A DNA stretch of 64,000 nucleotides, taken from contig NW_027362762.1 in the NCBI RefSeq assembly GCF_046119375.1, positions 106,082,001-106,146,000 on the forward strand, given 5' to 3'. The position numbers were made by a program, and so were the translations under genes. The notes below the pieces were generated by a model. It was given only the letters and a program-made list of their open reading frames with translations, was not told where the DNA came from and searched no databases. Source of the DNA: Phyllobates terribilis (taxonomy: Eukaryota). This document shows positions 1-61,979 of the stretch, in pieces. Each line of letters begins with the position of its first letter. Positions within the stretch are counted from its first letter, which is position 1.

Positions 1-1551
1 GATCAACCCTCTGCTTATAGTGAGCCTGCCGTACCCCTAGTGAGCCAAAGAGCCCGTAGACAGCTGCCCAGTTTATCTTTGACAGCTCCTACACCCCGTA
101 GCTCAGGACCAGTCAGTCAGCTCCGTAGGTCCACTAGAGCCACTAGAGGCCAGTTGCCCGTACGTTGGAGGATCTAAGTGTTTAGACTGCTTTATTTGTA
201 TTTACCTGTTTATTGTTGCCTGTAAATAATTGTGTATTTTTAGTTATTTTATAGGTGTCGTTTAGGGATTATCCAGAATACTTTGTACATATGTTTGGAG
301 CGTAACCCAGGAATGGACTAAAGACTGTTAAGGACTCGGGGCAGGACAGACCCCTACCTGGTTACGGCTCCCTGTTCCTTGGTGAAATGGACACCCTTGT
401 TTTCTTCAAAAACTGCACCCGGTTGCGGACACACCGTGACCATCCTAATGTGTTTTTCTTTATTATGCTGTTTCTGTTTATACTTGTATGTTTACAAAAA
501 TATGTTTAGTCCCGGAGTACTAAATTTCACTAGGGGGGAATGTGGCACCCCAGGGGTCTGGTTTCCACAGTAATAGCAATATTACGTCTGAGAGCAGGTG
601 GGAGGTCTCCTGGTCAGGAATCCTATGCATGCCACACCTCCTGCCCAGTCCTGGGAGGGGAAGAACTTCCCCTATATAAAACTAGGGCTGAGGCAGGGTT
701 AGGGAGAAGAAGAGGAGTCCCAGACAGAGACATAGTCTGGTGTGGAGAGGAGCAGCTATAGGAAAGAAAGATCAGGAGCTCTGTGGGAGCTGTGCTAAAA
801 GAGGTCAGGGCTGGAAGCTGTAGAGCTCGCCCTGATTGAAGAGTTCTTACCGGACCCGGAGTCCGAGGCTGTGGGGACTAATCCTTACCCAGCAGCAGAA
901 ACCGCCCGGCAGGGGATTTCAGGTCCTCTGGCCAAGAAACCCGAAGGCACGGTCACATGCAAGGGACCAGCACCGCCGTCGTGGAGCGGAAGCTACCAGA
1001 AGGCCCCGAGTCACCGGCCATACGGGTGAGCACCACACGGTACACTCAGGGACGTGGGCTACTTTTATCAGCCTCTAGCAAGGTAGCCAGAAGAGTACGA
1101 TTAGTTGGGGAGGCCTACAACTCCACCTGGCCAGGGGAGATTCCATCTGCTCGCGGACTGACCAGGCCCCGATCGCTAGCCAGTACTCCGGGAGGGTCTA
1201 CCTTTGCCACCAGTAAAGACCCTGAACTACACCGCACCGTCTCCGAGTGTTTCATCATCCACGTCCGCTGCCCTGAGGCCTTACCCCTCCCGTTGGGGGT
1301 TATACCATCCCCGCTGCACAACCGTATCACCGGCCTCAGCGGTCTGCCCTGCAGCGGCGGTCTCATGACCGCATTCAACGGGTGGCGTAGTCGAACATTC
1401 TAACATCTACTGCTAAATACTGCCGCTCAGTTTGACTCCCTGGGCACGGACCGGGTCACCGCCACGAGACTACTACCCCCATCTGATCCGGCTCCGGGTA
1501 AGCCCCCGTGCGCGCGATGCCGCACGACACAGCAGGCCCAGGGGCGCGTCA
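1..1551 (+). mobile_element. 3' end of Ty3/Gypsy provirus A (3' internal region, PPT and 3' LTR); continues left of window
   Basis: PPT AGGGGGGAA (532-540) abuts TGTGGCACCCCAGGGG; the same junction (GGAGTACT...CTAGGGGGGAATGTGG) occurs in provirus B at 34838-34870. Confidence 0.85.
541..1551 (+). repeat. 3' LTR of provirus A (1011 bp, TG...CA)
   Basis: Starts TGTGGCACCCC, ends GGGGCGCGTCA; TATATAAAA near 674; AGTAAA at 1212; homologous blocks with the other LTRs in the window. Confidence 0.85.
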
Positions 1552-2271: not shown

Positions 2272-3554
2272 TCTGCAAAGAAACAGTACAACAGAAAGCC
2301 AGTCTGATCCAGTATCGCCTCATGGTTTCCATTACAAGGGGAAACCATGATTCAAGTGTGCACAGTTCCTAAACCTTTGTGCATAATAACGGCTTCCATT
2401 TGTAATGGAAATTTTGAAGCTGTGCTGCAGTAAAATGAAGTGTGAACCTAGCCCAAGTCAGTGACATGTCCTTTAGAAATGGCACTTATAAACTTTTACT
2501 ATTTGGTGTACTGTATGAGCAAGCTGACCTTGACGCTGTGTTTCAGCGAAAACAGCGACATTCCCTTAATCTTGGCATCTAATAATCCCACACCTGTTTT
2601 CAACATAGAACTGCAATATATATGATCAGAAACAGAAGGATGAGCACAGAAAGCTAATAAGAAACTATGAAAATGGAACAGTAGGTGATCACTAGTAATG
2701 AGCAGTTTTTTCGAAAAGTACGGTTTAAAAAAAACTATTTGAGAACTGTAACAGAATTTTGGCTACTAATTTTACACTCATTGTAAATAGTAGGAGCACC
2801 ATCACTTTTGGGATAGATGAGATAATTTTCAAACACATTTTTAATCTTTTGCGATTTATTGGCTGTTTAATCAATACCATTGCCTTGTAGAATACAATCA
2901 TTTTCTCTGAGATTTCCTATTGTGGCAGTACAATAATGGATACAATTAGTTAGATACTGGTAAGAAATATCTGCGTGTATTAAAAATGTGTTTGAAAATT
3001 ATCTCATCTATCCCAAAAGTGATGGTGCTCCTACTATTTACAATGAGTGTAAAATTAGTAGCCAAAATTCTGTTACAGTTCTCAAATAGTTTTTTTTAAA
3101 CCGTACTTTTCGAAAAAACTGCTCATTACTAGTGATCACCTACTGTTCCATTTTCATAGTTTCTTATTAGCTTTCTGTGCTCATCCTTCTGTTTCTGATC
3201 ATATATATTGCAGTTCTATGTTGAAAACAGGTGTGGGATTATTAGATGCCAAGATTAAGGGAATGTCGCTGTTTTCGCTGAAACACAGCGTCAAGGTCAG
3301 CTTGCTCATACAGTACACCAAATAGTAAAAGTTTATAAGATTGCCATTTCTAAAGGACATGTCACTGACTTGGGCTAGGTTCACACTTCATTTTACTGCA
3401 GCACAGCTTCAAAATTTCCATTACAAATGGAAGCCGTTATTATGCACAAAGGTTTAGGAACTGTGCACACTTGAATCATGGTTTCCCCTTGTAATGGAAA
3501 CCATGAGGCGATACTGGATCAGACTGGCTTTCTGTTGTACTGTTTCTTTGCAGA
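2272..3554. repeat. Long near-perfect inverted repeat: arms 2272-2845 and 2979-3554, 133-bp spacer
   Basis: Arms are reverse complements throughout by eye, except a 2-bp indel near 3350. Confidence 0.92.
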
Positions 3555-5273: not shown

Positions 5274-6463
5274 TGACGCGCCCCCTGGGCCGTGGGGTAC
5301 TCGGTGACCCGGTCCGTGACCCAGGGCGGTCAATCCAAAGGGGAATATTTACACGGGATTTATAGTTTTTATATACAGTTCATGACACCACCTGTGGTAT
5401 GCGGCTAAAGGGAGCCACCACTGCGGGGCAGGTCCTCTGGAGCTGGTGTAAATGCAGCAGAGTTGGTTTAGCTCTCCACAGGTAGAGCTTAGTTCCAGGG
5501 CTGTGCGGAGTTGTTATGGTTGTTGCGGTGTAGTGCAGGGGGTGATGGCGCAGCAATAACTTCAGAGACAGTGCGGTGCAGTCTTCAGAGTTTACTCACA
5601 GTTGTTAAGTTCCTCTGGTTGCACTGTCCAGCTTACAGCCTCGCACGTCGCGCTGCGTTCACCAGGCAGGGGTTCAGCAAGCTCCCAGGTGTTTCAAGAG
5701 TGCCTGACAGGACCCCGTTCTGTATGACCTTCTCAGCCGTCTTTCTGCGCTGGCCCTCACCCTTCTTGCCCTGCGCCTCGCCAAACAATGTCCCAAGCCG
5801 GTATCCTCGGATCTTTCTGGGCAACCTGGAGTTCCCCTGGATCCTACGCGGTTACCTTTTGGGCGACTTGAGTGCGGATGTGGCAGCTGCACCCTGAAAG
5901 TACAGAAGCCTCCAATTTCCAGTTGAACCTTGTAATTCTCACTGCTCAGGGGCCGGTCCCCTCTGCGGCTTGATCCCTCCACCGCCTGGCAGATTCGGGC
6001 GTACGGGTGGCCTCCAGCACTGCCCGTACCCCTGGGATCCCTTTCACTTTCCTGGAGCCTCTCCTGCTCCTCTCTCCCTCAGTCTGTCCAGGGCCTCTCC
6101 TCAGGCCCTCTTCCTGAGCAGAGCTCCTGCTCCCACTCACTGTCCTCCTCTGACTGAACTGTCTCCACACCCAAGATGGCTTCCCTCTTTATACTATCCC
6201 TAAGAAGTGCTCCCCTGATCTACGTCCTCCACCCACGCCCACTACATGGTTCCCCCTACTTTGGTTCCCCCCACTCCAACCAGGGTCAGGGCTCAGCAGG
6301 AAGCGCGACACATCTTGCCCCTCCAGCTGGTCTGGAGTAGTGTAGTGTTGGATGCAGGTGTTAGGGTCCCGGGCAGCACTCTATCCTTACCTGAGGGTGA
6401 GATACCACACCTCTGGGTGAGATGCAGTACCTCTGTGGCGACTAAACCCACAGGGGCGCCACA
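5274..6463 (-). mobile_element. Solo Gypsy LTR (1190 bp), TATA TSD
   Basis: tata|TG...CA|tata; minus strand starts TGTGGCGCCCC and ends GGGGGCGCGTCA; last ~230 nt closely match the provirus B LTR. Confidence 0.9.
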
Positions 6464-25274: not shown

Positions 25275-26299
25275 TGTGGCACCCCAGGGGTCCGGTTGCC
25301 ACAGTGGCATTGCCTCCCTCACAAGAGGTGATGCCATGCCTGGAAGCAAGCAGGGGTCCCCTAGTCAGGTATACTAGCATGCAACACTTTCCTGGCTCCA
25401 GACCAGCAAGGGGAGCTCCTCCCCTTAGCAACTGGAATCTGGAGGCAGGGGTTAGTTAGTTAGTTAGTTAGTGAGAGGAGTTGAAGTCAGGACGTCGACG
25501 AGGAAAGACCTAGGGAGTGGAGCTGCACGGCAGTTCACCCCAGAGGAGAGAAGCGCAGAAGAACCGGACACTGGAGTCCAAGGTTGTGGGGCACTGAAGG
25601 CCCAGCAGCAGAAACCGGAGGGCAGGAGACTGCAGGTCTCCTGGCCCCATCAGACACCCGGAGGCTCAGCAGCACATAGGGCCCAGCACCACCACGTGGG
25701 AGCGACACTCCAGGAAGGCCCGAGCTGTCTGCCATACGGGTGAGCACAAAGACGTTTTACTCAGGGACGAGGGCCACAGCACAGCTACAAGCAGCAGGGT
25801 CAAAGAGATTAGTGCAAAGGGAAGGCCTAAAACTTCACCTGGTGAGGTGGATTCCCAACTTTCTTCCAGGCTGCCCGGACCTCTACTACAAACTAGTACC
25901 CGTACCCCGGTCTGCCTAACCACCGCAAGTAAAGATAAGAGGAAACCGCCATTAAGTTGTGGACTGATCATTAACTGCGCCATCCCCTGCCCTACACTGC
26001 ACAGCAACATCTATAACATCACCATTTCCTGCCCTGGAGCTAAGCTCTGCCTGTGGAGAGCTGAACCAATTCTGCTGCACTAACATCAGCTCCAGAGGAC
26101 CTGCTCCGCAGCGGCGGCTCCCTTTTGCCGCATACCACAAGTGGCGTCACGAACTTTATATAAAAACTATAACCCCCTTTCCCAAATTCCCCTTTTATTG
26201 ACCGCCCTGGGTCACGGACCGGGTCACCGCCACTGTGACATCTCCCCTAGCAACGACCGGCCTGGCTACCGAGTACCCCACGGCCCAGGGGGCGAGTCA
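25275..26299 (+). repeat. 5' LTR of provirus B (1025 bp)
   Basis: TG...CA; direct repeat of 34865-35882. Confidence 0.95.
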
Positions 26300-26302
26300 A
26301 CT

Positions 26303-26320
26303 TGGCGTCACGAACAGGAT
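26303..26320 (+). promoter_or_regulatory. Primer binding site TGGCGTCACGAACAGGAT, complementary to a tRNA-Ser(CGA) 3' end
   Basis: 3 nt after the LTR end; its reverse complement ATCCTGTTCGTGACG-CCA matches the vertebrate tRNA-Ser(CGA) 3' end as recalled. Confidence 0.85.
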
Positions 26321-27142
26321 TCGCGAAGCCCGGTATGACCAGGTCCTGAGTACTACAAAGACTGTGTATAACTGTATAAACTGCAGCCATTACTGTAGCA
26401 CATGCGGAGTTAATGATATGTGGGGTGTCCCATCGTGGGCGGAGCCTCAAAATCGGCGCCAAAATAGGGCCCTCCCACTTGCATAGACTGTACCAGAGTT
26501 GTCTGTCACTCAGGCTGAAAGGTGCCAGCCTTCCCCTTTGCATCAGACTGAGCCCTGCAGAGGGCTGTGTGATCCCATCCATCCATCCCAGCTACTTCAG
26601 CTCTGTGAATACAAGTGTAAGAAGCTGTGCAGCAAGAGTGCAGCTGTACAGTGACTGGCAGAGCAGCAGACTGGTATGTCAGCAGAAACCCAGGACCTGG
26701 CTGAGGTTCACTAGGGGGGAGGAAGATGCCCAACCTGGGAGAGGACTCAGCCGCGGATGCGGCCGCCGCCACTGTAATGCCATTATCAATGCCATATATA
26801 CCAGGGGCGGCGTGGTTGCCCCAGTACTCAGGGGAGTCGCACACCCTGAGCGACTTTGAGGAGAGACTGCGCAGTTTGTTTAAAGTGTACCCCCTGTCTG
26901 AGGAGCAAAAAGTCAGCATCCTCATAGGACAGCTAATCGGTGCAGCCCAGAGAGAAGTGAAGTCCTGGCCAGGCAGGGACAAAGGCACTGTTAAGGAAAT
27001 ACTGGCCCCGTTAAAGAATATCTTTGACACTCGCACCGCAGCAGAGATTAAAATGAAGTTCTACGGGTGCAAGCAAAGGGTGCAGGACAGTTTATGGGAC
27101 TATGCTCTAAACCTGCAGGAGGCGCTGCGGGCCATTAAACAG

Positions 27143-28625
27143 AAATGAATAAACGATGGCCCACCTTATGAAGCTGACCGGTCCGTGGTGTCTGGTCACG
27201 AGTTCCAGACCCTTGGCCGGTTGTTGCCTACTCGTATACCAAGTATTTTTTAAGGAAGGAGAAGACATGAGTTTTACAGCATGAAGAACATGATTTTATT
27301 AAGATAAGCAAACTAGTGCATACAAAGTCATTTCATATAAATTACAATACAGGGGAAGTAAAGTGCTTAGTGCCAGGTGTCAGGGGATCCCGCGGAAGAT
27401 GCAACAGCCGGGTTGGATATATATGAGTTATTATGTAAACGAGTTCAGGGTGGGTATACAGACATACACCCAAAGTGCTAGACTGCTAGTGTACAGTACA
27501 GACCAAAAGTTTGGACACACCTTCTCATTTAAAGATTTTTCTGTATTTTCATGACTATGAAAATTGTACATTCACACTGAATGCATCAAAACTATGAATT
27601 AACACATGTGGAATTATATACTTAACAAAAAAGTGTGAAACAACTGAAAATATGTCTTGTATTCTAGGTTCTTCAAAGTAGCCACCTTTGCTTTGATGAC
27701 TGCTTTGCACACTCTTGGCATTCTCTTGATGAGCTTCAAGAGGTAGTCACCGGAAATGGTCTTCCAACAATCTTGAAGGAGTTCCCAGAGATGCTTGGCA
27801 CTTGTTGGCCTTTTTGCCTTCACTCTGCGGTCCAGCTCACCCCAAACCATCTCGATTGGGTTCAGGTCTGGTGACTGTGGAGGTCAGGTCATCTGGCGTA
27901 GCACCCCATCACTCTCCTTCTTGGTCAAATAGCTTGGAGGTGTGTTTGGGGTCATTGTCCTTTTGAAAAATAAATGATGGTCCAACTAAACGCAAACCGG
28001 ATGGAATAGCATGCCACTGCAAGATGCTGTGGTAGCCATGCTGGTTCAGTATGCCTTCAATTTTGAATAAATCCCCAACAGTGTCACCAGCAAAGCACCC
28101 CCACACCATCACACCTCCTACTCCATGCTTCACGTTGGGAACCAGGCATGTAGAGTCCATCCGTTCACCTTTTCTGCGTCGCACAAAGACACGGTGTTAA
28201 TTCATAGTTTTGATGCCTTCAGTGTGAATGTACAATTTTCAAAGTCATGAAAATACAGAAAAATCTTTAAATGAGAAGGTGTGTCCAAACTTTTGGTCAG
28301 TACTGTAAGTAATAACAGATTGTAGTAAAAAGTGCAAGCAGTCACATATGTAGCCCGACCCATCCCATACATATCAGTGCAACCTCATGTATAAAACTCA
28401 CCCAGCTTCAATGCCCGCACAGTCAGCACATCGATGGGACCCCAACACCACTGGTACCGATGAGAGTAACGTGCCTGACACCTGGCACTATGCACTTTAC
28501 TTCCCCTGTATTGTAATTTATATGAAATGACTTTGTATGCACTAGTTTGCTTATCTTATTTTAAAAAATCATGTTCATGCTGTAAAACTCATGTCTTCTC
28601 CTTCCTTTAAAAAAAAAAAAAAAAA
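27143..28625. mobile_element. Unclassified insertion with 14-bp TSD, terminal poly(A) and ~140-bp inverted repeats
   Basis: GGGCCATTAAACAG at 27129-27142 and 28626-28639; A-tail before the right TSD; IR 27246-27384 / 28474-28612. Confidence 0.85.
27494..28305 (-). mobile_element. Internally deleted Tc1 nested in the gag insertion
   Basis: ta|CAGTACAGACCAAAAGTTTGGACAC...GTGTCCAAACTTTTGGTCAGTACTG|ta; fragments VKHGVGGVMVWGCFAG, FQKDNDPKHT and WGELDRRV. Confidence 0.92.
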
Positions 28626-29861
28626 GGGCCATTAAACAGGTAGACCCCGACAGTGTGCGAGACGAGGACAGATTGCTAACTGAGCAGTTTATTGAGGGGC
28701 TCCTGTCTGACGCTCACCGGACACAGCGGCGCCTTATGGCTCTGCAAAACCCTGATCTGGACTTTGCGCAATTTAAAGACCGAGCCATCCGGGTGCTACG
28801 AGAATCAACCCCAAGTGGCACTGCACCCCTCCGGTGCCCAGCTATCACATACCACCAGGAGGTGGCGTCCTTTTCCCCAGCACCTGTGGAGGCTGACGCG
28901 CAGACCCTAGATAATGACCCGTCTGCAGACCTACGCCTTCAGGTTCAGGAGCTGACCAAAAGTGTGGCTACACTAACCAAAACCGTGCAAGTGTCTCCAA
29001 AGGAAAGAATCCAGCTGGCTTCCAGTCCAGATGACGTCCCGTGGCGACGGCAGAGAAGAATTCCACCGACCAGAGGGAGAAACCGCAATTGCTACGACCA
29101 GAACGGACAACCCATCTGTTGCCACTGTCAAAAGGCGGGGCACATCGCAAGATTCTGCAACTTAAACGAGCAACCCCTGGGGCAGAGGGTCAACCCCCAA
29201 GGAGTAAGACAACCGGGCCCACAAAGCTGGCGAGACAAGTACGTGGGAGGACGACCGGTCCTACCTGTTGTGCTTGATGGCATTCTGATGAACGCATTGC
29301 TGGACACTGGTTCCCAGGTGACAACGATGCCATATATCCTTAATAAACGATACTGGACTGACTCAGACATTACCCGCAGTCCAGATGAACATCTTAACAT
29401 CTATGCCAGCAATGGTCAGCCCTTGCCTCAGGTGGGCTATAAAGAGGTGACCATAAAAGTTGGCCGAGTAGAATTGCCATCACAAGGAATGATTATTGTT
29501 GATATTGATCGCCGAGAAAGTCATCCTATGATAACTATAGGCACCAATGTGATAGAGAATTGTCCTGGGGAAATTATTCTTTTGTTGCAACAGGTCGCAG
29601 AGACTGCCAGTTCCAGTCAGCAGCAAGTTCTGCAGAAGGAAATCAGAGCCCTGATGAAAAGACAACAGGTAGAGCTGTCTGGTGGAGAAGTCTGCAGTGT
29701 CAGGATGAGTGATCCATTCCCCATTGCAATGCCCCCTAGGAGTGAAATGTTAATATGGTGTCGGGCAACAATAGATCTCAGTGGTCAAGATTATCAGGCC
29801 CTGGTAGAACCCGTGTACTCTGATAGTAGGCCCACCATCTGGACAGTCAGGGGGGTAGTCT

Positions 29862-32800
29862 ATGTCCGCAAGGGGAAGAGTACCGATACGTATCCTGAAT
29901 TGTGGGGAGAAAGAGGTCCATTTACCCCGGTATGCCACTCTTGCTAAGCTGTTCACTGTCAGTAACAATGCAATAAAGGCAGTGGAACCCTTGCCTCCGT
30001 CCAAACCGGCAGAGGATAATGGCTCCAAGGGACAGGTGGAGGATTGGTGTCAGAAGTTACTAGTGGGCACTGACTCCACCCCTTTGCACCAAAAGCATGG
30101 AGTATACCGGGTGGTCAAAAAATATGAGCGAGTCTTCAGCACACACCCACTAGATTTTGGGCAGGTAAAAGGGGTCGAACATCATATCCCCACGGGAGAT
30201 CATCCGCCCATTAAAGAGAGGTACCGGCCTGTACCCCCAGCTCACTATCAATGTGCCAAAGGAATGTTACGGGAGATATAGGAGGCTGGGGTGATCAGAG
30301 ATAGTTGTAGCCCCTGGGCAGCTCCATTAGTTCTCGTTAGAAAGAAGGATGGTACAATGAGGATGTGTGTTGATTACAGGCAGATTAACCGCATTACACA
30401 TAATTGAGGAATCATTAGCAGCATTCAGATCAGCTAACTATTTCTCCACTTTGGATCTCACCAGTGGGTACTGGCAGGTTCCTGTGGCAGAGGCGGACAG
30501 AGAAAAGACCGTGTTTACAACACCAATGGGCCTCAGCGAGTTCAACTGAATGCCATTCGGGCTCTGCAATGCCCCAGGAACCTTCCAGCGGTTAATGGAG
30601 TGTTGCCTAGGACACAAAAACTTTGAAACCATCCTGCTGTACGTAGATGATGTAATCGACTACTCAAAGACATATGAAGACCACCTGGAGCACCAGGCCG
30701 AGGTGTTCGAAGCCCTATCTGGTTATGGCCTGAAAGTAAAACCGTCCAAGTGCCACCTGTTGAAGCCCAAGGTGCAGTACCTAGGTGATGTGGTAAGCGC
30801 TGAAGGTGTAGCTCCAGACCCTGAAAAAGTCTCTGTGATCAAGGACTGGCCAAGACCCTCCACTATCAAGGAAGTGCGGCAGTTCCTTGGGCTGGTAGGC
30901 TACTACAAGAGATTCATCAAGGGTTTCACCAAGATAGCGGCACCCATGCAGGACCTCTTAGTGGGCCAGTCCAAGAAGGCCAAGAACCCAAAACCTCCGT
31001 TCAAATGGGGTAAACCAGAAGACTAATCTTTCACTCGACTGAAAATGGCTCTTACTGGAGACGAAGTCCTGGCCTACCCCGACTATGGCCAACCCTTTGT
31101 ACTCTATACGGATGCCAGCAACGTGGGATTGGGAGCGGTGCTGTCCCAGGTACAGCAGGGCAGAGAGATAGTGATTGCCTACGCCAGCAGGAAGCTCCGT
31201 CCTACGGAAAGGAACCCCAACAACTATAGTTCCTTCAAGTTGGAGTTTTTAGCCATAGTCTGGGCTGTAACAGAGCGCTTCAAACACTACCTCGCCTCCT
31301 CCAGATTTACAGTCTTCACAGACAACAACCCGCTGACGCACCTGGAGACTGCGAAGCTTGGTGCCCTAGAGCAACGATGGATGGCCCGATTGTCTAACTA
31401 TGAGTTTACCATTGTAGTGCCGGCGTCCCTGCCCTCTGCTAGGCAGGGACGCTGTTCCCCTCACCGCTCTGCTCCGTGCCCGGCGTCCCTCTCCCGCTCT
31501 GCTGGCAGCGCGCGCTCCTTCCCGGCCACTGTGCTTAGGGCGCGCGCGCGCGCCCTCCCTCCCTCTTAAAGGGGCCGCGCGCGCCGTCCTAAGGAGTCCC
31601 CGGCCAATGGCCGGAGGACTTTACCATATATAAGGCACCTCCTCCAAAATGGAGGTGCCCGAGCAATGTTGTTGCACCGTTCTACTCTGCTTCAGCCCTC
31701 AGGTCCCTTGCCAGTTACCTGCCAGTTTCCTGCCAGATTCCTGCCAGCTTGCTGTCCTAATCCTGCCTGATTTCCTGTTACCTGCCTGCCTGCCTGAGGT
31801 CCGACGGTCTGCCTTACAACTCCGGTCAGTCTGTCTAAGGACCAACTTGCCCGCTCACCTGGGAGCGCACATCAGCTACCTGCCTGTTTGCCTGAGGTCC
31901 GACGGTCTGCCTTACAACTCCGGTCAGTCTGTCTATGGACCAGCTTGCCCGCTCACCTGGGAGCACTTCTCCGCTACCTGCCTGCTTGCCTGCCCGGAGG
32001 CTCCGCTGTCACGTGCTGTGACCACCAGCTATTCCAGACTCTTGCCCGCTCACCTGGGAGCGCTTCTCCGCTACCTGCCTGCTTGCCAGCCCGGAGGCTC
32101 CGCTGTCACGTGCTGTGACCACCAGCTATTCCAGACTCTTGCCCGCTCACCTGGGAGCGCTTCTCCGCTACCTGCCTGCTTGCCTACCTGGAGGCTCCGC
32201 CGTCACGTGCTGTGACCACCTGCTATTCCAGAGACTCTCGCTTGCTCACCTGGGAGCACACATCCTCCATCTGCCTTGCTAGCCTACCTGGAGGTTCAGC
32301 CATCACAGGTCGTACCTACCCTTTACCTAGAGACTGCCCCGGTCACTTGCCGTGACCTCCAGCCCGTTCTTCCAGAGACTGCCCTGATCACTTGCCGTGA
32401 CCTCCTGCCCGTACACCCAGAGACTGTCCCGGTCACCTGCTGTGACTGCCTGCCTGGTCGCCACCCGCTCCCTTACAAGGACCGCTCCCTTGTATAGTAG
32501 CCCAGAGGTTCCGCCTCCCAGACCCGTTACAACCATCAAGTATCGGGCTGGGCATAAAAACACCAATGCTGATGCGCTGTCCAGGCAGCCCAACTTGCCA
32601 GATGGGGGAGAAGACCCGGAAGATCTGGAGGAGATTGAGCTACCCGCTTTCCATCGTCACGGGGTGACCCAGTGCTCCCACTGTGTGAGGGACAAGCGCT
32701 CCGTCAACAGAGAGGCCACGTTTAACCCATTGCCCCACCATGGATGGGCAGAGACGCAGGATAGCGACCAGGCTGTCCGCCTGGTAAAGGAGTTGCTGAC

Positions 32801-33960
32801 ACAAGCTGATTCGCACCCTGATCCAGATTCTCCACAGGAGGCCCAACAGTTGTGGAAGGAGAAGGGCAAACTGTTCATCTACAAGGGAAAGCTGTGTGGA
32901 AGTATCCACTCCCGGACACACGAACTGTTCTGGCAGGTGGTAGTCCCGAGGCGGGATGTGCCAATGGTCTTAGAAGCATACCACAATGGAGCAGGACACT
33001 TCGGGTGTAAGAAGTTGGAAGTCCTGCTACGTGAGCTATTCTACTGGGTTGGCATGAGGAAAGCAATCGAGAGATGGTGTTGAGAATGTGGTCCATGTAA
33101 CCTGAGACGGAAAGACCGTGACAGCCAGGGGGCTCCCCTGCAGCCCATAATCTCCAAACAACCACTTGAACTGGTAGCCTTGGACCACGTGAAGCTAGCC
33201 CTACGCTCTCACCATAGTAGACCACTACTCCAGGTTCTTGGTAGTAGTGCCAGTGAAAGATCAGATGGCTCAGATGGCTGCCAAAGCGTTTCAACAACAC
33301 TTTTGTCGCCCACACAGTTACCCTGAACGAGTGCTGACCGACCAAGGTCCAGCATTTGAAGCAGAAGTGTTCCAAGAACTCTGTAACTTGTACGGCTGCA
33401 AGAAAATGAGGACGACGCCATATCATCCCCAGACCAACGGGTTGTGCGAGAAAATGAACCAGGTGGTGATAGACCTGTTGAAGACGTTGCCCCTTGAAGA
33501 ACATAGCCTGTGGCTAGAGAAGTTACCCGATTTGGTGGACCTATATAACCACATCCCGGTGAACTCCACCAACTGTACACCCGCTTACCTGATGAGAGCA
33601 AGACCTGGTAAGCTACCCATTGACTTAGATATGGGAGTTTTAACACCAGAGACAACATCACCAGATGCAGATTGGGATACAGAGCGGCAGCAACAATACC
33701 GCAAGGTGCAAGAATGTGTGGAAAGAAGTTTGTCCCAGGTGAGACAGAAGCAGGAGAAAACTTACAATCAGCACGCACCTGCCGTTACCTTATCACCTGG
33801 AGACCAGGTACTTAAGAGGAAGAGACGAGTCCATAAATTAATGACCAGTGGGAGGTTGAGCCATACACCATCCTACCCTCGAATTACGATAACACCAAAG
33901 TGTGCCTCATCAGTAAAGATGGAGGGGAAACTTCAGCGGCAGTCTCAAGAGACCACCTGA
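29862..33960 (+). pseudogene. Gypsy pol: RT, RNase H, integrase (stops, frameshifts, deletions)
   Basis: RT SPWAAP/VDYRQIN/DLTSGYWQ/YVDDV; RH LYTDASNVGLGAVLSQ; IN HNGAGH...C*ECGPC, TDQGPAFE, TTPYHPQTNGLCE; in-frame TGA/TAA near 30547, 31024 and 33081. Confidence 0.93.
31413..32531 (+). mobile_element. Nested solo LTR of an unrelated family (1119 bp), 5-bp TSD ACCAT
   Basis: accat|TGTA...TACA|accat; removal restores YEFTIKYRAGHKNTNADALSR; TATATAA near 31627; internal ~97-99-bp tandem units. Confidence 0.92.
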
Positions 33961-34855
33961 AGATATGTCCTGAACAGTTGAAACACAAAGAAGAAGACCA
34001 AGACAGCCCTCAGCCCACAGAAGAGGTGGAAGAAATGGTCCAGATAGTCCTTGGAGCATTTCCCCGGTCTTGGACGCAGGTGAACAGAGGAATTGTGGTA
34101 TCTGTCCTGACCTTTCTCCAAGCGGCCTTACCGGAAGCTGCAGAGGCTCCAGAACATCTGCAAGACCAGTCGGCCCCAGAGACAGATGCTTCATCAGCAG
34201 CAGATCAGGAGACTCTACCCTCTGCTAGCAGTGAACCTGTCGTACCCAGGGTGAGTCAAAGAATTCGTAGGAGATTACACAGCCTACCGGTGTTACCTCA
34301 GACTACCTGTAGTGTAGTTCACCCTGAACCCACCACACCAGGGGTAGACACAAGGGACCTTGGTAGGTTAGTAACAACAAATGTACTACGTAGATTGACC
34401 CGGAGTACTAAAGGTCAGCTCCCTGCCCGCTGGAGGAACTAAAGTGTATGTTATATATAGTTGTAACCGTTAAATAATCTTGGATATATATGGTTGCTAA
34501 ATTTATAGACAATTGGACCACAGGACTAGGTGTGGTCAGGACAATGTTGAAAATAGTTAATAATTGGCCTTGAAAATAAACCACAGGCGTGGCTGAAGAC
34601 CAGGCCCAACTACAGCGTGCCCTGAAGCCACGCCTAGGAACAATACACAAAGTGGGTTGATGCGGTTCCCACCAGCCAAAAGACAATCCCCAGATTGTGG
34701 CGTAAAGACTAAGCGCCGCAGTGACTGCTACCAATTATTGTTTTTTTTTGTGATTTTTGCTTTTTGAGATTTTGTAAACTATTTGTAATGTGAATTGTTA
34801 TTGTTAATTGTTAATTCAAAAAGGTTTCCTCAGTCTGGGAGTACTGAAGTTAACT

Positions 34856-34864
34856 AGGGGGGAA
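34856..34864 (+). promoter_or_regulatory. Polypurine tract AGGGGGGAA
   Basis: Directly abuts the TG of the 3' LTR; identical to 532-540. Confidence 0.85.
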
Positions 34865-35882
34865 TGTGGAACCCCAGGGGTCCGGTTGCCACAGTGGCAT
34901 TGCCTCCCTCACAAGAGGTGATGTCATGCCTGGAAGCAAGCGGGGGTCCCCTAGTCAGGTATACTAGTTTGCAACACTTTCCTGGCTCCAGACCAGCAAG
35001 GGGAGCTCCTCCCCTTAGCAACTGGAATCTGGAGGCAGGGGTTAGTTAGTTAGTTAGTTAGTGAGAGGAGTTGAAGTCAGGACGTCGACGAGGAAAGACC
35101 TAGGGAGTGGAGCTGCACGGCAGTTCACCCCAGAGGAGAGAAGCTCAGAAGAACCGGACTCTGGAGTCCGAGGTTGTGGGGCACTGAAGGTCCAGCAGCA
35201 GAAACCGGAGGGCAGGAGACTGCAGGTCTCCTGGCCCCATCAGACGCCCGGAGGCTCAGCAACATGATAGGGCCCAGCACCGCCACGTGGGAGCGACACT
35301 CCAGGAAAACCGAGCAGCCTGCCATACGGGTGAGCACAAAGACGTTTTACTCAGGGACGAGGGCCACAGCACAGCTACAAGCAGCAGGGCCAAAGAGATT
35401 AGTGCAAAGGGAAGGCCTAAAACTTCACCTGGCGAGGTGGATTCCAAACTTGCTTCCAGGCCGCCCGGGCCTCTACTACCAGGTAGTACCCATGCCCCGG
35501 TTTGCCTAACCACCACAAGTAAAGATAAGAGGAAACCGCCATTAAGTTGTGGACTGATTATTAACTGCGCCATCCTCTGCACTACACCGCACAGCAACAT
35601 CTATAAAATCACTACTTCCTGCCCTGGAGCTAAGCTCTGCCTGTGGAGAGCTGAACCAACTCTGCTGCGTCACCATCAGCTCCAGAGGATCTGCACCGCA
35701 GTGGCGGCTCCATATAGCCGCATACCACAGGTGGCGTCACGAACATTATATAAAAACTATAATCCCCTTTCCCAAATTTTATAGACCGCCCTGGGTCACG
35801 GACCGGGTCATCGCCACTGTGAGATCTCCCCTAGCAACGATCGGCCCGGCTACCGAGTACCCACGGCCCGCAGGGCGCATCA
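34865..35882 (+). repeat. 3' LTR of provirus B (1018 bp)
   Basis: TG...CA followed by TSD ctac. Confidence 0.95.
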
Positions 35883-46018: not shown

Positions 46019-49000
46019 GCTAGAGAGAGGGAGAAGAGAGAGTGCAGGAGGGAGGCTAGAGAGAGGGAAAAGAGAGAGTGCAGGAGGGAGGGTAGAGAGA
46101 GGGAGAAGAGAGTGCAGGAGGGAGGCTAGAGCGAGGGAGAAGAGAGAGTGCAGGAGAGAGGCTAGAGCGAGGGAGAAGAGAGAGTGCAGGAGGGAGGCTA
46201 GAGAGAGGGAGAAGAGAGAGTGCAGGAGGGAGGCTAGAGAGAGGGAGAAGAGAGAGTGCAGGAGGGAGGCTGAGAGAGGGAGAAGAGAGAGTGCAGGAGG
46301 AAGGCTAGAGAGAGGGAGAAGAGAGAGTGCAGGAGGGAGGCTAGAGAGAGGGAGAAGAGAAAGTGCAGGAGGGAGGCTAGAGCGAGGGAGAAGAGAGAGT
46401 GCAGGAGGGAGGCTAGAGAGAGGGAGAAGAGAAAGTGCAGGAGGGAGGCTAGAGAGAGGGAGAAGAGAGAGCGCAGGAGGGAGGCTAGAGAGAGGGAGAA
46501 GAGAGAGTGCAGGAGGGAGGCTGAGAGAGGGAGAAGAGAGAGTGCAGGAGGAAGGCTAGAGAGAGGGAGAAGAGAGAGTGCAGGAGGGAGGCTAGAGAGA
46601 GGGAGAAGAGAGAGTGCAGGAGGGAGGCTAGAGAGAGGGAGAAGAGAGTGCAGGAGGGAGGCTAGAGCGAGGGAGAAGAGAGAGTGCAGGAGGGAGGCTA
46701 GAGAGAGGGAGAAGAGAGAGTGCAGGAGGGAGGCTAGAGAGAGGGAGAAGAGAGAGTGCAGGAGGGAGGCGAGAGAGAGGGAGAAGAGAGAGTGCAGGAG
46801 GGAGGCTAGAGAGAGGGAGAAGAGAGAGTGCAGGAGAGAGGTTAGAGAGAGGAAGAAGAGAGAGTGCAGGAGGGAGGCTAGAGAGAGGAAGAAGAGAGAG
46901 TGCAGGAGGGAGGCTAGAGAGAGGGAGAAGAGAGAGTGCAGGAGGGAGGCTAGAGAGAGGGAGAAGAGAGAGTGCAGGAGGGAGGTTAGAGCGAGGGAGA
47001 AAAGAGAGTGCAGGAGGGAGACTAGAGAGAGGGAGAAGAGAGAGTGCAAAAGGGAGGTTAGAGCGAGGGAGAAGAGAGAGTGCAGGAGGGAGGCTAGAGA
47101 GAGGGAGAAGAGAGAGTGCAGGAGGGAGGCTACAGAGAGGGAGAAGAGAGAGTGCAGGAGGGAGGCTAGAGAGAGGGAGAAGAGAGAGTGCAGGAGGGAG
47201 GCTGAGAGAGGGAGAAGAGAGAGTGCAGGAGGAAGGCTAGAGAGAGGGAGAAGAGAGAGTGCAGGAGGGAGGCTAGAGAGAGGGAGAAGAGAGAGTGCGG
47301 GAGGGAGGCTAGAGAGAGGGAGAAGAGAGAGTGCGGGAGGGAGGCTAGAGAGAGGGAGAAGAGAGAGTACGGGAGGGAGGCTAGAAAGAGGGAGAAGAGA
47401 GAGTGCGGGAGGGAGGCTAGAGAGAGGGAGAAGAGAGAGTGCGGGAGGGAGGCTAGAGAGAGGGAGAAGAGAGAGTGCGGGAGGGAGGCTAGAGAGAGGG
47501 AGAAGAGAGAGTGCAGGACGGAGGCTAGAAAGAGGAAGAAGAGAGAGTGCAGGAGGGAGGCTAGAGCGAGGGAGAAGAGAGAGTGCAGGAGGGAGGCTAG
47601 AGAGAGGGAGAAGAGAGAGTGCAGGAAGGAGGCTAGAGAGAGGGAGAAGAGAGAGTGCAGGAGGGAGGCTAGAGCGAGGGAGAAAAGAGAGTGCAGGAGG
47701 GAGGCTAGAGCGAGGGAGAAGAGAGAGTGCAGGAGGGAGGCTAGAAAGAGGAAGAAGAGAGAGTGCAGGAGGGAGGCTAGAAAGAGGAAGAAGAGAGAGT
47801 GCAGGAGGGAGGTTAGAGCGAGGGAGAAGAGAGAGTACAGGAGGGAGGCTAGAGAGAGGGAGAAGAGAGAGTACAGGAGGGAGGCTAGAGAGAGGGAGAA
47901 GAGAGAGTGCAGGAGGGAGGCTAGAAAGAGGGAGAAGAGAGAGTACAGGAGGGAGGCTAGAGAGAGGGAGAAGAGAGAGTGCAGGAGGGAGGCTAGAGAG
48001 AGGGAGAAGAGAGAGTACAGGAGGGAGGCTAGAGAGAGGAAGAAGAGAGAGTGCAGGAGGGAGGCTAGAGCGAGGGAGAAGAGAGAGTGCAGGAGGGAGG
48101 CTAGAGCGAGGGAGAAGAGAGAGTGCAGGAGGGAGACTAGAAAGAGGAAGAAGAGAGAGTGCAGGAGGGAGGCTAGAGAGAGGGAGAAGAGAGAGTGCAG
48201 GAGGGAGGCTAGAGAGAGGAAGAAGAGAGAGTGCAGGAGGGAGGCTAGAGAGAGGGAGAAGAGAGAGTGCAGGAGGGAGGCTAGAGAGAGGGAGAAGAGA
48301 GAGTGCAGGAGGGAGGCTAGAGAGAGGGAGAAGAGAGAGTGCAGGAGGGAGGCTAGAGAGAGGAAGAAGAGAGAGTGCAGGAGGGAGTCTAGAGAGAGGA
48401 AGAAGAGAGAGTGCAGGAGGGAGGCTAGAGAGAGGGAGAAGAGAGAGTGCAGGAGGGAGGCTAGAAAGAGGAAGAAGAGAGAGTGCAGGAGGGAGGTTAG
48501 AGCGAGGGAGAAAAGAGAGTGCAGGAGGGAGGCTAGAGAGAGGGAGAAGAGAGAGTGCAGGAGGGAGGCTAGAGAGAGGGAGAAGAGAGAGTGCAGGAGG
48601 GAGACTAGAGCGAGGGAGAAGAGAGAGTGCAGGAGGGAGGCTAGAGAGAGGGAGAAGAGAGAGTGCAGGAGGGAGGCTAGAGAGAGGGAGAAGAGAGAGT
48701 GCAGGAGGGAGGCTAGAGAGAGCGAGAAGAGAGAGTGCAGGAGGGAGGCTAGAGAGAGGGAGAAGAGAGAGTGCAGGAGGGAGTCGACAGAGAGGGAGAA
48801 GAGAGAGTGCAGGAGGGAGGCTAGAGAGAGGGAGAAGACAGAGTGCAGGAGGGAGGCCAGAGAGAGGAAGAAGAGAGTGCAGGAGGGAGGCTAGAGAGAG
48901 GAAGAAGAGAGAGTGCAGGAGGGAGGCTAGAGAGAGGGAAAAGAGAGAGTGCAGGAGGGAGGCTAGAGAGAGGGAGAAGAGAAAGTGCAGGAGGGAGGCT

Positions 49001-52000
49001 AGAGAGAGGGAGAAGAGAGAGTGCAGGAGGGAGGCTAGAGAGAGGGAAAAGAGAGAGTGCAGGAGGGAGGCTAGAAAGAGGGAGAAGAGAGAGTGCAGGA
49101 GGGAGAAGAGAGAGTGCAGGAGAGAGGCTAGAGAGAGGGAGAAGAGAGAGTGCAGGAGGGAGGCTAGAGAGAGGGAGAAGAGAGAGTGCAGGAGGGAGGC
49201 TAGAGAAAGGGAGAAGAGAGAGTGCAGGAGGGAGGCTAGAGAGAGGGAGAAGAGAGAGTGCAGGAGGGAGGCTAGAGCGAGGGAGAAGAGAGAGTGCAGG
49301 AGGGAGGCTAGAGCGAGGGAGAAGAGAGAGTGCAGGAGGGAGGCTGAGAGAGGGAGAAGAGAGAGTGCAGGAGGGAGGCTGAGAGAGGGAGAAGAGAGAG
49401 TGCAGGAGGAAGGCTAGAGAGAGGGAGAAGAGAGAGTGCAGGAGGGAGGCTAGAGAGAGGGAGAAGAGAGAGTGCAGGAGGGGGGCTAGAGAGAGGGAGA
49501 AGAGAGTGCAGGAGGGAGGCTAGAGCGAGGGAGAAGAGAGAGTGCAGGAGGGAGGCTAGAGAGAGGGAGAAGAGAGAGTGCAGGAGGGAGGCTAGAGAGA
49601 GGGAGAAGAGAGAGTGCAGGAGGGAGGCTAGAGAGAGGGAGAAGAGAGAGTGCAGGGGGGAGGCTAGAGAGAGGAAGAAGAGACAGTGCAGGAGGGAGGC
49701 TAGAGAGAGGGAGAAGAGAGAGTGCAGGAGGGAGGCTAGAGCGAGGGAGAAGAGAGAGTGCAGGAGGGAGGCTAGAGAGAGGGAGAAGAGAAAGTGCAGG
49801 AGGGAGGCTAGAGAGAGGGAGAAGAGAGAGTGCAGGAGGGAGGCTAGAGAGAGGGAGAAGAGAGAGTGCAGGAGGGAGGCTGAGAGAGGGAGAAGAGAGA
49901 GTGCAGGAGGAAGGCTAGAGAGAGGGAGAAGAGAGAGTGCAGGAGGGAGGCTAGAGAGAGGGAGAAGAGAGAGTGCAGGAGGGAGGCTAGAGAGAGGGAG
50001 AAGAGAGTGCAGGAGGGAGGCTAGAGCGAGGGAGAAGAGAGAGTGCAGGAGGGAGGCTAGAGAGAGGGAGAAGAGAGAGTGCAGGAGGGAGGCGAGAGAG
50101 AGGGAGAAGAGAGAGTGCAGGAGGGAGGCTAGAGAGAGGGAGAAGAGAGAGTGCAGGAGAGAGGTTAGAGAGAGGAAGAAGAGAGAGTGCAGGAGGGAGG
50201 CTAGAGAGAGGAAGAAGAGAGAGTGCAGGAGGGAGGCTAGAGAGAGGGAGAAGAGAGAGTGCAGGAGGGAGGCTAGAGAGAGGGAGAAGAGAGAGTGCAG
50301 GAGGGAGGTTAGAGCGAGGGAGAAAAGAGAGTGCAGGAGGGAGGCTAGAGAGAGGGAGAAGAGAGAGTGCAAAAGGGAGGTTAGAGCGAGGGAGAAGAGA
50401 GAGTGCAGGAGGGAGGCTAGAGAGAGGAAGAAGAGAGAGTGCAGGAGGGAGGCTAGAGAGAGGGAGAAGAGAGAGTGCAGGAGGGAGGCTAGAGCGAGGG
50501 AGAAGAGAGAGTGCAGGAGGGAGGTTAGAGCGAGGGAGAAAAGAGAGTGCAGGAGGGAGGCTAGAGAGAGGGAGAAGAGAGAGTGCAAAAGGGAGGTTAG
50601 AGCGAGGGAGAAGAGAGAGTGCAGGAGGGAGGCTAGAGAGAGGGAGAAGAGAGAGTGCAGGAGGGAGGCTAGAGAGAGGGAGAAGAGAGAGTGCAGGAGG
50701 GAGGCTAGAGAGAGGGAGAAGAGAGAGAGGGAGAAGAGAGAGTGCAGGAGGGAGGCTAGAGAGAGGGAAAAGAGAGAGTGCAGGAGGGAGGTTAGAGCGA
50801 GGGAGAAAAGAGAGTGCAGGAGGGAGGCTAGAGCGAGGGAGAAGAGAGAGTGCAAAAGGGAGGTTAGAGCGAGGGAGAAGAGAGAGTGCAGGAGGGAGGC
50901 TAGAGAGAGGGAGAAGAGAGAGTGCAGGAGGGAGGCTAGAGAGAGGGAGAAGAGAGAGTGCAGGAGGGAGGCTAGAGAGAGGGAGAAGAGAGAGTGCAGG
51001 AGGGAGGCTAGAGAGAGGGAGAAGAGAGAGTGCAGGAGGGAGGCTAGAGAGAGGGAGAAGAGAGAGTGCAGGAGGGAGGCGAGAGAGAGGGAGAAGAGAG
51101 AGTGCAGGAGGGAGGCTAGAGAGAGGGAGAAGAGAGAGTGCAGGAGGCAGGCTAGAGAGGGGGAGAAGAGAGAGTGCAGAAGGGAGGCTAGAGAGAGGGA
51201 GAAAAGAGAGTGCAGGAGGGAGGCTAGAGAGAGGGAGAAGAGAGAGTGCAGGAGGGAGGCTAGAGCGAGGGAGAAGAGAGAGTGCAGGAGGGAGGCTAGA
51301 GAGAGGGAGAAGAGAGAGTGCAAAAGGGAGGTTAGAGCGAGGGAGAAGAGAGAGTGCAGGAGGGAGGCTAGAGAGAGGGAGAAGAAAGAGTGCAGGAGGG
51401 AGGCTAGAGAGAGGGAGAAGAGAGAGTGCAGGAGGGAGGCTAGAGCGAGGGAGAAGAGAGAGTGCAGGAGGGAGGCTAGAGAGAGGGAGAAGAGAGAGTG
51501 CAAAAGGGAGGTTAGAGCGAGGGAGAAGAGAGAGTGCAGGAGGGAGGCTAGAGAGAGGGAGAAGAAAGAGTGCAGGAGGGAGGCTAGAGAGAGGGAGAAG
51601 AGAGAGTGCAGGGGTAGGCTAGAGAGAGGAAGAAGAGACAGTGCAGGAGGGAGGCTAGAGAGAGGGAGAAGAGAGAGTGCAGGAAGGAGGCTAGAGCGAG
51701 GGAGAAGAGAGAGTGCAGGAGGGAGGCTAGAGAGAGGGAGAAGAGAAAGTGCAGGAGGGAGGCTAGAGAGAGCGAGAAGAGAGAGTGCAGGAGGGAGGCT
51801 AGAGAGAGGGAAAAGAGAGAGTGCAGGAGGGAGGCTAGAGAGAGGGAGAAGAGAGTGCAGGAGGGAGGCTAGAGCGAGGGAGAAGAGAGAGTGCAGGAGA
51901 GAGGCTAGAGAAAGGGAGAAGAGAGAGTGCAGGAGGGAGGCTAGAGAGAGGGAGAAGAGAGAGTGCAGGAGGGAGGCTAGAGAGAGGGAGAAGAGAGAGT

Positions 52001-60759: not shown

Positions 60760-61979
60760 TGACGCGCCCCCTGGGCCATATTCAGGGGATACCCGGAGCC
60801 GGATCTGGATAGGGGTAGTAGTCCTTGTGGCGGTGATCCGGTCCGTGCCCAGGGTGTCAAACTAAGTGGCAGTCTATGGCAGTAGATGTTAACTTGGATG
60901 TCGACTACGCCACCCGTTGAGTGCGGCTTTGCAGCCGCCGCTGCAGAACAGTCCGCTGAGGCCGGTGGTATGGGTGCAGCGATGATGTTATAACCCCCAA
61001 CGGGAGGGGTATGGCCTCAGGGCAGCAGGGATAAATGATGGGGGTGATGGTGGTACACGAGCGCAACAAAGACAACTCGGAGTCTTGGTGGTGCAGTTCA
61101 GGGTCTTTACTCACGGTTACTCGGTTACTGCTCCAGGCCACCGCTGCAGAGGTGGCCGCCTGTGTCGCGCTGTGCTCACCAGGTGAGGGGCTCGGTTAAC
61201 TCCCAAGTCTTTCTGGAGTGCTTTGCAGGACCCCCTTTATGTCCCCTGTCTCTGGTCTTCAACCCCACTAGTGACCACGCTTATGTCCAGCTGCCTCGGA
61301 CCTTCTTGGTGGGCAAACGTTGGCCTGCGTTTCCCAGGTCCTATGTGGTGCCTTTCTAGCGGGTGTGGTGAGGGGCTGCTCCACATGTAATGTCGCAGCC
61401 TCCGGTTCTTAGTTGAGGGTAGTTTCTCTCCTCCACTAATTTGGGATCCGGTTCCCATCTTCTTGACCTGACCCCCCTACTCAGGTAGCGGCGGGCGTGT
61501 GGTGGCTACCAGCCAGTCCACACCCCTGGGGTCCCCTCTGTCCTTCCTGGAGCCCAGTCTGCTCCTCTTCCTCCTTCTTCCCTCCTCCAGGCTCAGGCCT
61601 CCTGACAGGGCCTGCCTGTGGAGCAGAGCCCATAAAGCAGCTCTGCTCCCTGTCTTCTCCTCTCTCAACTCACTCCCTTTCCAAGATGGTGCCTCCCTTT
61701 ATACTCCTGTACAGAGTGCACCCAGGATCTACTTCCCCCACGCACACACTACCGGGTTCCCTTCTCTAGGTGTTCCCTCCCCCCACTCCAGCCAGGGACA
61801 TGCTCACTCGTGCCTGCATAACTAATGGGAGCACCGTCGAGCTGTCCCCCGGAAATGTGGTGTAGTGCATGTGGGTGTTAGGGTCCTGAGCCACACTCCA
61901 TCCTTACCTGGAAGTGAGATATCGCACATCTGGGTGAGATGCAATACCTCTGTAGCAACCGAACCCTCGGGGTGCTACA
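60760..61979 (-). mobile_element. Solo Gypsy LTR (1220 bp), TATG TSD
   Basis: tatg|TG...CA|tatg; minus strand starts TGTAGCACCCC and ends GGGGGCGCGTCA; U5 resembles LTR A, U3 start resembles 5274-6463. Confidence 0.9.

Follow-up and report, generated by a model that had tools for sequence, protein, structure and literature searches.

A putative U5 loading site for primer tRNA-Ser in Ty3/gypsy retrotransposons of Phyllobates terribilis

How retroelements pick, unfold and hold their primer tRNA is still debated, even for HIV, according to the available portions of PMC3185550. A locus of Phyllobates terribilis brings the question up in a particular form: why should an LTR carry, well before its own end, a second complement of the same tRNA end that pairs with the true PBS? 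Our window, by which we mean the whole analysed stretch of 64,000 nucleotides (contig NW_027362762.1, positions 106,082,001 to 106,146,000 of the forward strand), holds five related Gypsy LTRs, and an initial annotation had described in each of them a PBS-like motif, here called the inner site, beside a short stem. All five motifs and stems were recovered at their places in the following elements.

25275-35882, plus strand: element A, Ty3/gypsy type, with broken ORFs, RT-RH-INT order and a 4-bp TSD
25275..26299, plus strand: 5' LTR of element A, 4-bp TSD
34865..35882, plus strand: 3' LTR of element A, with the inner site at 35732-35744 and a 5'-end site at 35813
5274..6463, minus strand: solo LTR of CGA type, 4-bp TSD, with a decayed inner site at 5378-5390
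541..1551, plus strand: 3' LTR of AGA type behind a PPT, with the inner site at 1383-1393 and a split 5'-end site from 1461
60760..61979, minus strand: solo LTR of a young AGA family, 4-bp TSD, with the inner site at 60902-60912

These elements have the marks of Ty3/gypsy LTR retrotransposons, namely TG...CA LTR ends, TSD, PBS and PPT, a pol gene in the order RT-RH-INT, and Gag. Read from intact frames of relatives, Gag is PNMA-like, near the Pfam cut-off and with a weak CCHC match; the nearest pol proteins come from frogs first, then from fish and other animals. A Ser(AGA) PBS is present in 5' LTRs of the young family represented by the solo LTR at 60760..61979 (minus), and a deletion has removed the 5'-end site from the solo LTR at 5274..6463 (minus). 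Element A also contains an insertion with long inverted ends (27246-28614). Elsewhere in the window lie an element with inverted arms of 574 bp that are 99.7% identical (2272-3554), a purine-rich 9-kb tandem array of a 36-bp unit (46019-55006) and an uninterrupted Tc1/mariner transposase frame of 357 aa (57652-58728, minus strand). The distal part of the 5' LTR of element A, with the PBS behind it, is organized as follows.

25928..25933, plus strand: likely polyadenylation signal AGTAAA, which would put the downstream parts in U5
26030..26141, plus strand: Domain I, a five-helix RNA with two pseudoknot helices, showing covariation
26032-41/26088-98, plus strand: helix H1 of Domain I
26044-48/26057-61, plus strand: helix H2 of Domain I
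26050-56/26135-41, plus strand: helix H3 of Domain I, a pseudoknot
26074-78/26108-12, plus strand: helix H4 of Domain I, a pseudoknot
26114-18/26127-31, plus strand: helix H5 of Domain I, the hairpin noted earlier
26142..26154, plus strand: inner site, a 13-nt complement of the tRNA-Ser(CGA) 3' end adjoining helix H3
26155..26198, plus strand: linker, variable and G-poor
26199..26299, plus strand: Domain II, predicted to fold into a long U5 hairpin that closes at the LTR end and carries the 5'-end site in the apical loop
26229..26239, plus strand: 5'-end site, a complement of tRNA-Ser nt 1-11, with one G-U in this LTR
26303..26323, plus strand: true PBS for tRNA-Ser(CGA), a 21-nt match in element A

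In 109 of 116 unique copies a signal of the form AGTAAA or AATAAA precedes the inner site by 150-280 nt, and judged from this signal the inner site would sit in U5. The spacer between LTR end and PBS (26300-26302 in the window) ranges from 3 to about 9 nt across subfamilies, which would imply variable end trimming at integration.

The initial annotation had recognized in the motifs complements of tRNA-Ser(CGA) or tRNA-Ser(AGA/UGA), and this holds against tRNA genes of the same genome, where the Ser(CGA) gene lies at locus L189:1442-1523 and the Ser(AGA) and Ser(UGA) genes are identical to each other at both ends. The inner site matches the 3' end of a host tRNA-Ser gene over 10-13 nt; the chance expectation per LTR is 2e-5 for a 13-mer and 2e-4 for an 11-mer. 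Exact PBS sequences number 69,769 of the AGA type and 8,117 of the CGA type genome-wide. Covariation of the inner motif with the true PBS had been set beforehand as a test: by exact patterns the two agree in 62,679 elements (58,536 AGA/AGA and 4,143 CGA/CGA) and disagree in 7 (4 and 3), these being copy counts rather than independent events. The seven discordant copies are scattered singles, at least two of which look like recombinants, and none represents an amplified family. All data for the retrotransposon family come from one genome.

To profile the pairing we chose loci by their true PBS alone, examining 30 AGA and 30 CGA loci, of which 29 and 26 were anchored. Inner positions 1-10 pair with the tRNA in at least 27 of the 29 anchored AGA copies, where the match covers positions 1-10 or 11, and positions 1-13 do so in at least 19 of the 26 anchored CGA copies. 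The match then ends sharply, with positions 15-16 paired in 0/29 AGA and 0-1/26 CGA anchored copies, and the linker downstream varies. The motif is common to lineages whose Gag identity is only 40-44%; within a biased sample, collected by means of an upstream profile, it was in place in 187 of 188 unique copies and shifted in one. In the CGA lineages, positions 11-13 fit the tRNA 3' strand. Position 11 cannot base-pair with the 5'-end site of the element itself, an indication that the partner is the tRNA. Concordance with the PBS and the bounded tRNA match support the earlier impression that the motif looks maintained by tRNA pairing. The inner site is a real and strongly conserved feature, and probably a functional one.

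Domain I, directly upstream of the inner site, was aligned in 37 hand-picked representatives (39 had been prepared, and 2 that were mis-anchored were left out). RNAalifold gave three main helices and left the inner motif unpaired. With the two pseudoknot helices added from the alignment, the structure comprises 32 pairs with 97.1% of cells paired, and 15 of the 32 pairs show changes on both sides. None of 500 shuffles scored as high and slid controls were 34-56% paired, although these controls flatter a structure derived by eye from the same sequences that were counted. Helix H3 includes two compensated pairs and ends on the base directly before the inner site. The stem that the initial annotation had placed beside the motif does covary, being H5, one of five covarying helices; it is, however, part of a double-pseudoknot domain and not the ordinary pre-PBS hairpin of U5 that had been supposed. 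Nor does the motif look like a captured ancestral LTR end, since the sequence preceding it is a pseudoknot strand, unlike an LTR end, and such an origin may at most be very old. When whole U5 regions were folded, MFE structures were heterogeneous, and the folding models put most of the inner site in pairs (mean unpaired probability 0.18-0.58), its partners changing from copy to copy. An Rfam search with the RNA domain returned no match at the gathering score and two weak snoRNA matches far below threshold. An HDV-like ribozyme was considered and rejected, given this Rfam result and a helix order that does not fit the ribozyme.

A third site lies upstream of the PBS, at a distance of about 70-95 nt, and is complementary to the 5' end (nt 1-11) of the tRNA that the PBS matches. 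It prefers the cognate tRNA in 28/30 AGA and 26/30 CGA loci. The CGA lineages have the site in one piece. The two AGA lineages construct it differently: in the main one a short bulge interrupts the complement, and a second large one (10,520 matches) has it unbroken. Across 38 copies of this second lineage 415 of 418 positions are paired, 64 of them as G-U, variation being almost entirely of the G-U kind, and in one CGA lineage, which has two fixed mismatches, 39 of 594 cells are unpaired; all such pairing figures are inflated, since the site was picked as the best match. The G-U changes opposite tRNA nt 2 and 5 are equally consistent with pairing of the 5'-end site to the inner site or to the PBS. 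In constrained folding with the 5'-end site kept open, 35 of 39 copies had 10 or more pairs around it, with a mean z of only -1.2. The predicted structure is a long hairpin that closes at the LTR end and has this site in its loop, so that the inner site and the PBS would flank the hairpin base. At three loci (L287, L307 and L311) the AGA-type 5'-end site appears intermediate between the CGA and main AGA forms.

Trees built without the tRNA sites require 2-5 tRNA changes. When AGA use was constrained to a single origin, p-AU came to 0.035, 0.41 and 0.02 by partition and to 0.093 combined, in trees that missed 1/43, and 0.0504 in an earlier tree from which 5 of 58 cluster representatives had been left out. 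Because only some partitions reject a single origin, independent tRNA switches are suggested but not firm. One 60-locus set was counted after leaving out 9 of its 60 members as deleted or duplicate copies. The Gag tree shows recombination and is therefore no guide to LTR history. In a comparison of element A with L061-L120, the LTR type of the window goes with a Gag nearer to that of AGA families than to that of other CGA families, a mismatch indicating that LTR-PBS modules and gag have recombined.

Is the inner site itself used for priming? A tandem or alternative priming site had been among the initial proposals, and its routine use is not supported: only 2 copies genome-wide have the inner context followed by a full PBS. 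One of them is a deletion, and in the other, L151, an 18-nt PBS stands in place of the inner site, though not in the 3' LTR. At the inner boundary 12 and 16 copies are broken, compared with 22 at a control position. Short LTRs ending at the inner motif had been proposed as a check, but an LTR end with TSD was found in 0 of these 28 boundary-broken copies, 23 of which are internal deletions or rearrangements with U5 resuming afterwards; copies lacking the inner site were only scattered singles among the 28 examined. The inner site is not a working alternative PBS: inner-primed LTRs are absent, and what such a PBS would lead one to expect, short LTRs that stop at the site and its regeneration to 18 nt, was not borne out. 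Abortive priming would leave no integrated trace, because the inner site is without LTR-end sequence. A promoter reading of the CRE-like motif before a TATA-like run at 26157 was rejected, as AGA families lack this AT-rich run and TATA-like boxes are concentrated 700-800 nt before the inner site; a reading of the motif as LTR-end mimic fits the CGA motif alone.

One class of rare copies does record pairing at the inner site. In 73 AGA and 17 CGA copies, or about 0.1% of PBS copies, a full 18-nt PBS is present and another PBS lies 110-200 nt downstream of it; we read these events as errors. Inspection of 42 such copies put 31 into the class of distal U5 duplications, 23 of which resume at inner position +18 or +19, in register just after the 18-nt tRNA copy and often at junctions without homology. 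The second unit is less than 90% identical to the first in 19 of 35, suggesting a co-packaged template, and a plain recombination-type junction was seen in only 9 copies (counted for AGA copies). It appears that plus strong-stop DNA now and then anneals, by the end copied from the tRNA, to the complement of the inner site and is then extended, which would suggest why the match stops short of 18 nt. Such copies show pairing of the inner site in vivo with PBS sequence at the DNA stage, not with the tRNA. They also represent a reverse-transcription error able to lengthen an LTR and bring a PBS inside it. Separately, many elements (L153-L181 and L188-L196) have a PBS far longer than 18 nt, the copied part of tRNA-Ser reaching about 50 nt at most, which would point to read-through of the stop usual in the tRNA; among pattern matches these extended-PBS elements outnumber real tRNA genes.

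What, then, might the inner site do? We favour, with a probability of roughly 0.45, the reading that the inner site and the 5'-end site form a loading dock in U5, where primer tRNA-Ser would be held unextended and then moved to the PBS; a primer-loading role was one of the initial proposals, and PBS concordance and the tRNA match appear to favour it. The CCA end of the tRNA would pair first at the inner site, over 10-13 bp and thus opening little beyond the acceptor stem, while the freed 5' strand would pair in the U5 hairpin loop. Extension would be stopped by the pseudoknot helix, which lies immediately in front of the 3'-OH, and the 3' end would then shift across the hairpin to the stronger 18-nt PBS with the 5' end still anchored. 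Because one tRNA cannot hold the inner site and the PBS together, binding would be sequential or by a second molecule. Sequential loading is favoured by an inner match of about acceptor-arm length, a 5'-end site able to take the displaced strand, the pseudoknot ahead, and permissive energies: by nearest-neighbour estimates the duplex yields -21 to -25 kcal/mol against 7-8.5 for opening the tRNA end and 3-8 for opening the site, so that docking would be allowed. Against the dock we count that the only direct footprint of inner-site pairing comes from the DNA stage and that models partly bury the site. A more specific form, in which RNA alone (double pseudoknot, CCA site and 5'-end loop) would swap strands with the acceptor stem, hold the tRNA unextendable and hand it to the PBS in two-step priming, we regard as doubtful. 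T-box RNAs select uncharged tRNA, and by analogy the loading device could possibly do likewise. The family amounts to a natural swap experiment, with two tRNAs, tens of thousands of copies and three co-changing sites, and offers natural deletion, discordant and duplication variants; the staged model could be put to the test with a non-coding RNA of 300 nt and the two host tRNAs.

The tandem-PBS copies bear most directly on a different explanation, in which the inner complement on minus strong-stop DNA would keep plus strong-stop DNA tethered by its PBS end until the second transfer proper, the last 5-7 mismatched nt normally preventing extension. Their number in both types, their register, their diverged second units and the scarcity of plain recombination junctions are all as such a tether would have it, yet events this rare read as errors, and the tether leaves unexplained both the abutting RNA-sense pseudoknot with its G-U pairs and the 5'-end site; we consider it rather unlikely. 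A second tRNA molecule at the inner site, enriching tRNA in particles or bridging two genome copies without any hand-over, would draw on the same sequence evidence as the dock and on the inability of one tRNA to fill both sites, and bridging by tRNA has been proposed for Ty3 in the accessible text of PMC4974528. That text also has Ty3 dimerization and packaging surviving loss of the tRNA or the PBS, and each RNA here has a single 5'-end site rather than two, which together make this option unlikely.

If instead the motif paired within the RNA, with the 5'-end site or nearby segments, it would free the PBS and follow the tRNA only indirectly. Inner positions 5-11 do complement part of the 5'-end site, and in many copies the first bases of the motif could pair with a short segment further downstream; even so, position 11 of the CGA type fits the tRNA alone, predicted partners vary between copies, and the permuted half order allows no continuous helix, all of which renders an intramolecular partner quite improbable. 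We give very little credence to a neutral relic of the PBS refreshed through template switching: conversion does occur, as L151 testifies, but 2 such copies stand against about 78,000 exact PBS, positions 15-16 are never kept in the match, and among the 28 copies examined site-deleted ones did not rise above scattered singles. Productive alternative priming is likewise hardly probable, and so is a motif that tRNA fragments or a host repressor would target. L151 is compatible with one inner-primed event, and abortive priming could have gone unrecorded in integrated copies; boundary breaks, on the other hand, do not exceed the control, none of the 28 has a TSD, and an element would not be expected to conserve a target for its own silencing.

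How does the loading-dock reading compare with known systems? Drosophila gypsy, also a Ty3/gypsy element, has two binding sites for tRNA-Lys,2, the second of them an 11-nt primer-tRNA site not used for priming, according to the available part of PMC1635307; here, unlike there as far as that part goes, the second site lies in U5 and matches the same acceptor/CCA end as the PBS. In Ty1 and Ty3 a single primer tRNA pairs with several stretches of the genome, as it would here: the accessible text of PMC4974528 describes for Ty1 an extended PBS and a 5' pseudoknot important for reverse transcription and for Ty3 a 5'-3' bipartite PBS, whereas a repeated acceptor-end site goes unmentioned in that text. 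The present elements thus share with such multipartite PBS the extra genome sites complementary to the primer tRNA; the 5'-end site would bind a part of the tRNA other than its PBS-bound 3' end, and the inner site repeats the complement of that 3' end. In FIV a U5 stem-loop pairs with the extreme 5' end of tRNA-Lys3 (PMC3230847, in the portion available), a direct precedent for a 5'-end site in a U5 hairpin loop, a position that in our elements is predicted. That portion mentions neither an inner 3'-end site nor a pseudoknot domain, and our site, of 11-12 nt, tracks two tRNAs. The HIV-1 PAS and A-rich loop and the U5-T-psi-C contacts of HIV-2 and avian viruses likewise link U5 sequences to primer choice and control of initiation, but in the available portions of PMC3185550 they involve the T-psi-C arm, anticodon arm or variable loop and not the CCA end. 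Searches of the openly accessible literature, outside Repbase and most subscription journals, turned up no other case of a U5 that repeats the site for the CCA end, and within the same scope no two-step priming pathway of this kind for any retroelement. Multi-site pairing of primer and template is already known, and a putative second CCA-end site inside U5 would be the element not found described.

A scan of metagenomes produced 29 matches, most of them chance-like, and both sites were present in none of the 7 inspected; viral contigs gave 0 matches to the AGA PBS. A third PBS type in this genome, Ser(UGA)-2, occurs in 89 copies of other families, and a clear inner site was absent from 30 of 30 such loci, 3 of which have a perfect 5'-end site. 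These three (L204, L215 and L218) belong to a different, Ser(UGA)-2-primed family in which the 11-nt complement of the tRNA 5' end lies about 33 nt before the PBS; the 5'-end site may thus be widespread. In the L197-L224 group of Ser(UGA)-2 elements, a loose PBS-like stretch that may be due to chance lies about 300 nt before the PBS, upstream of AATAAA.
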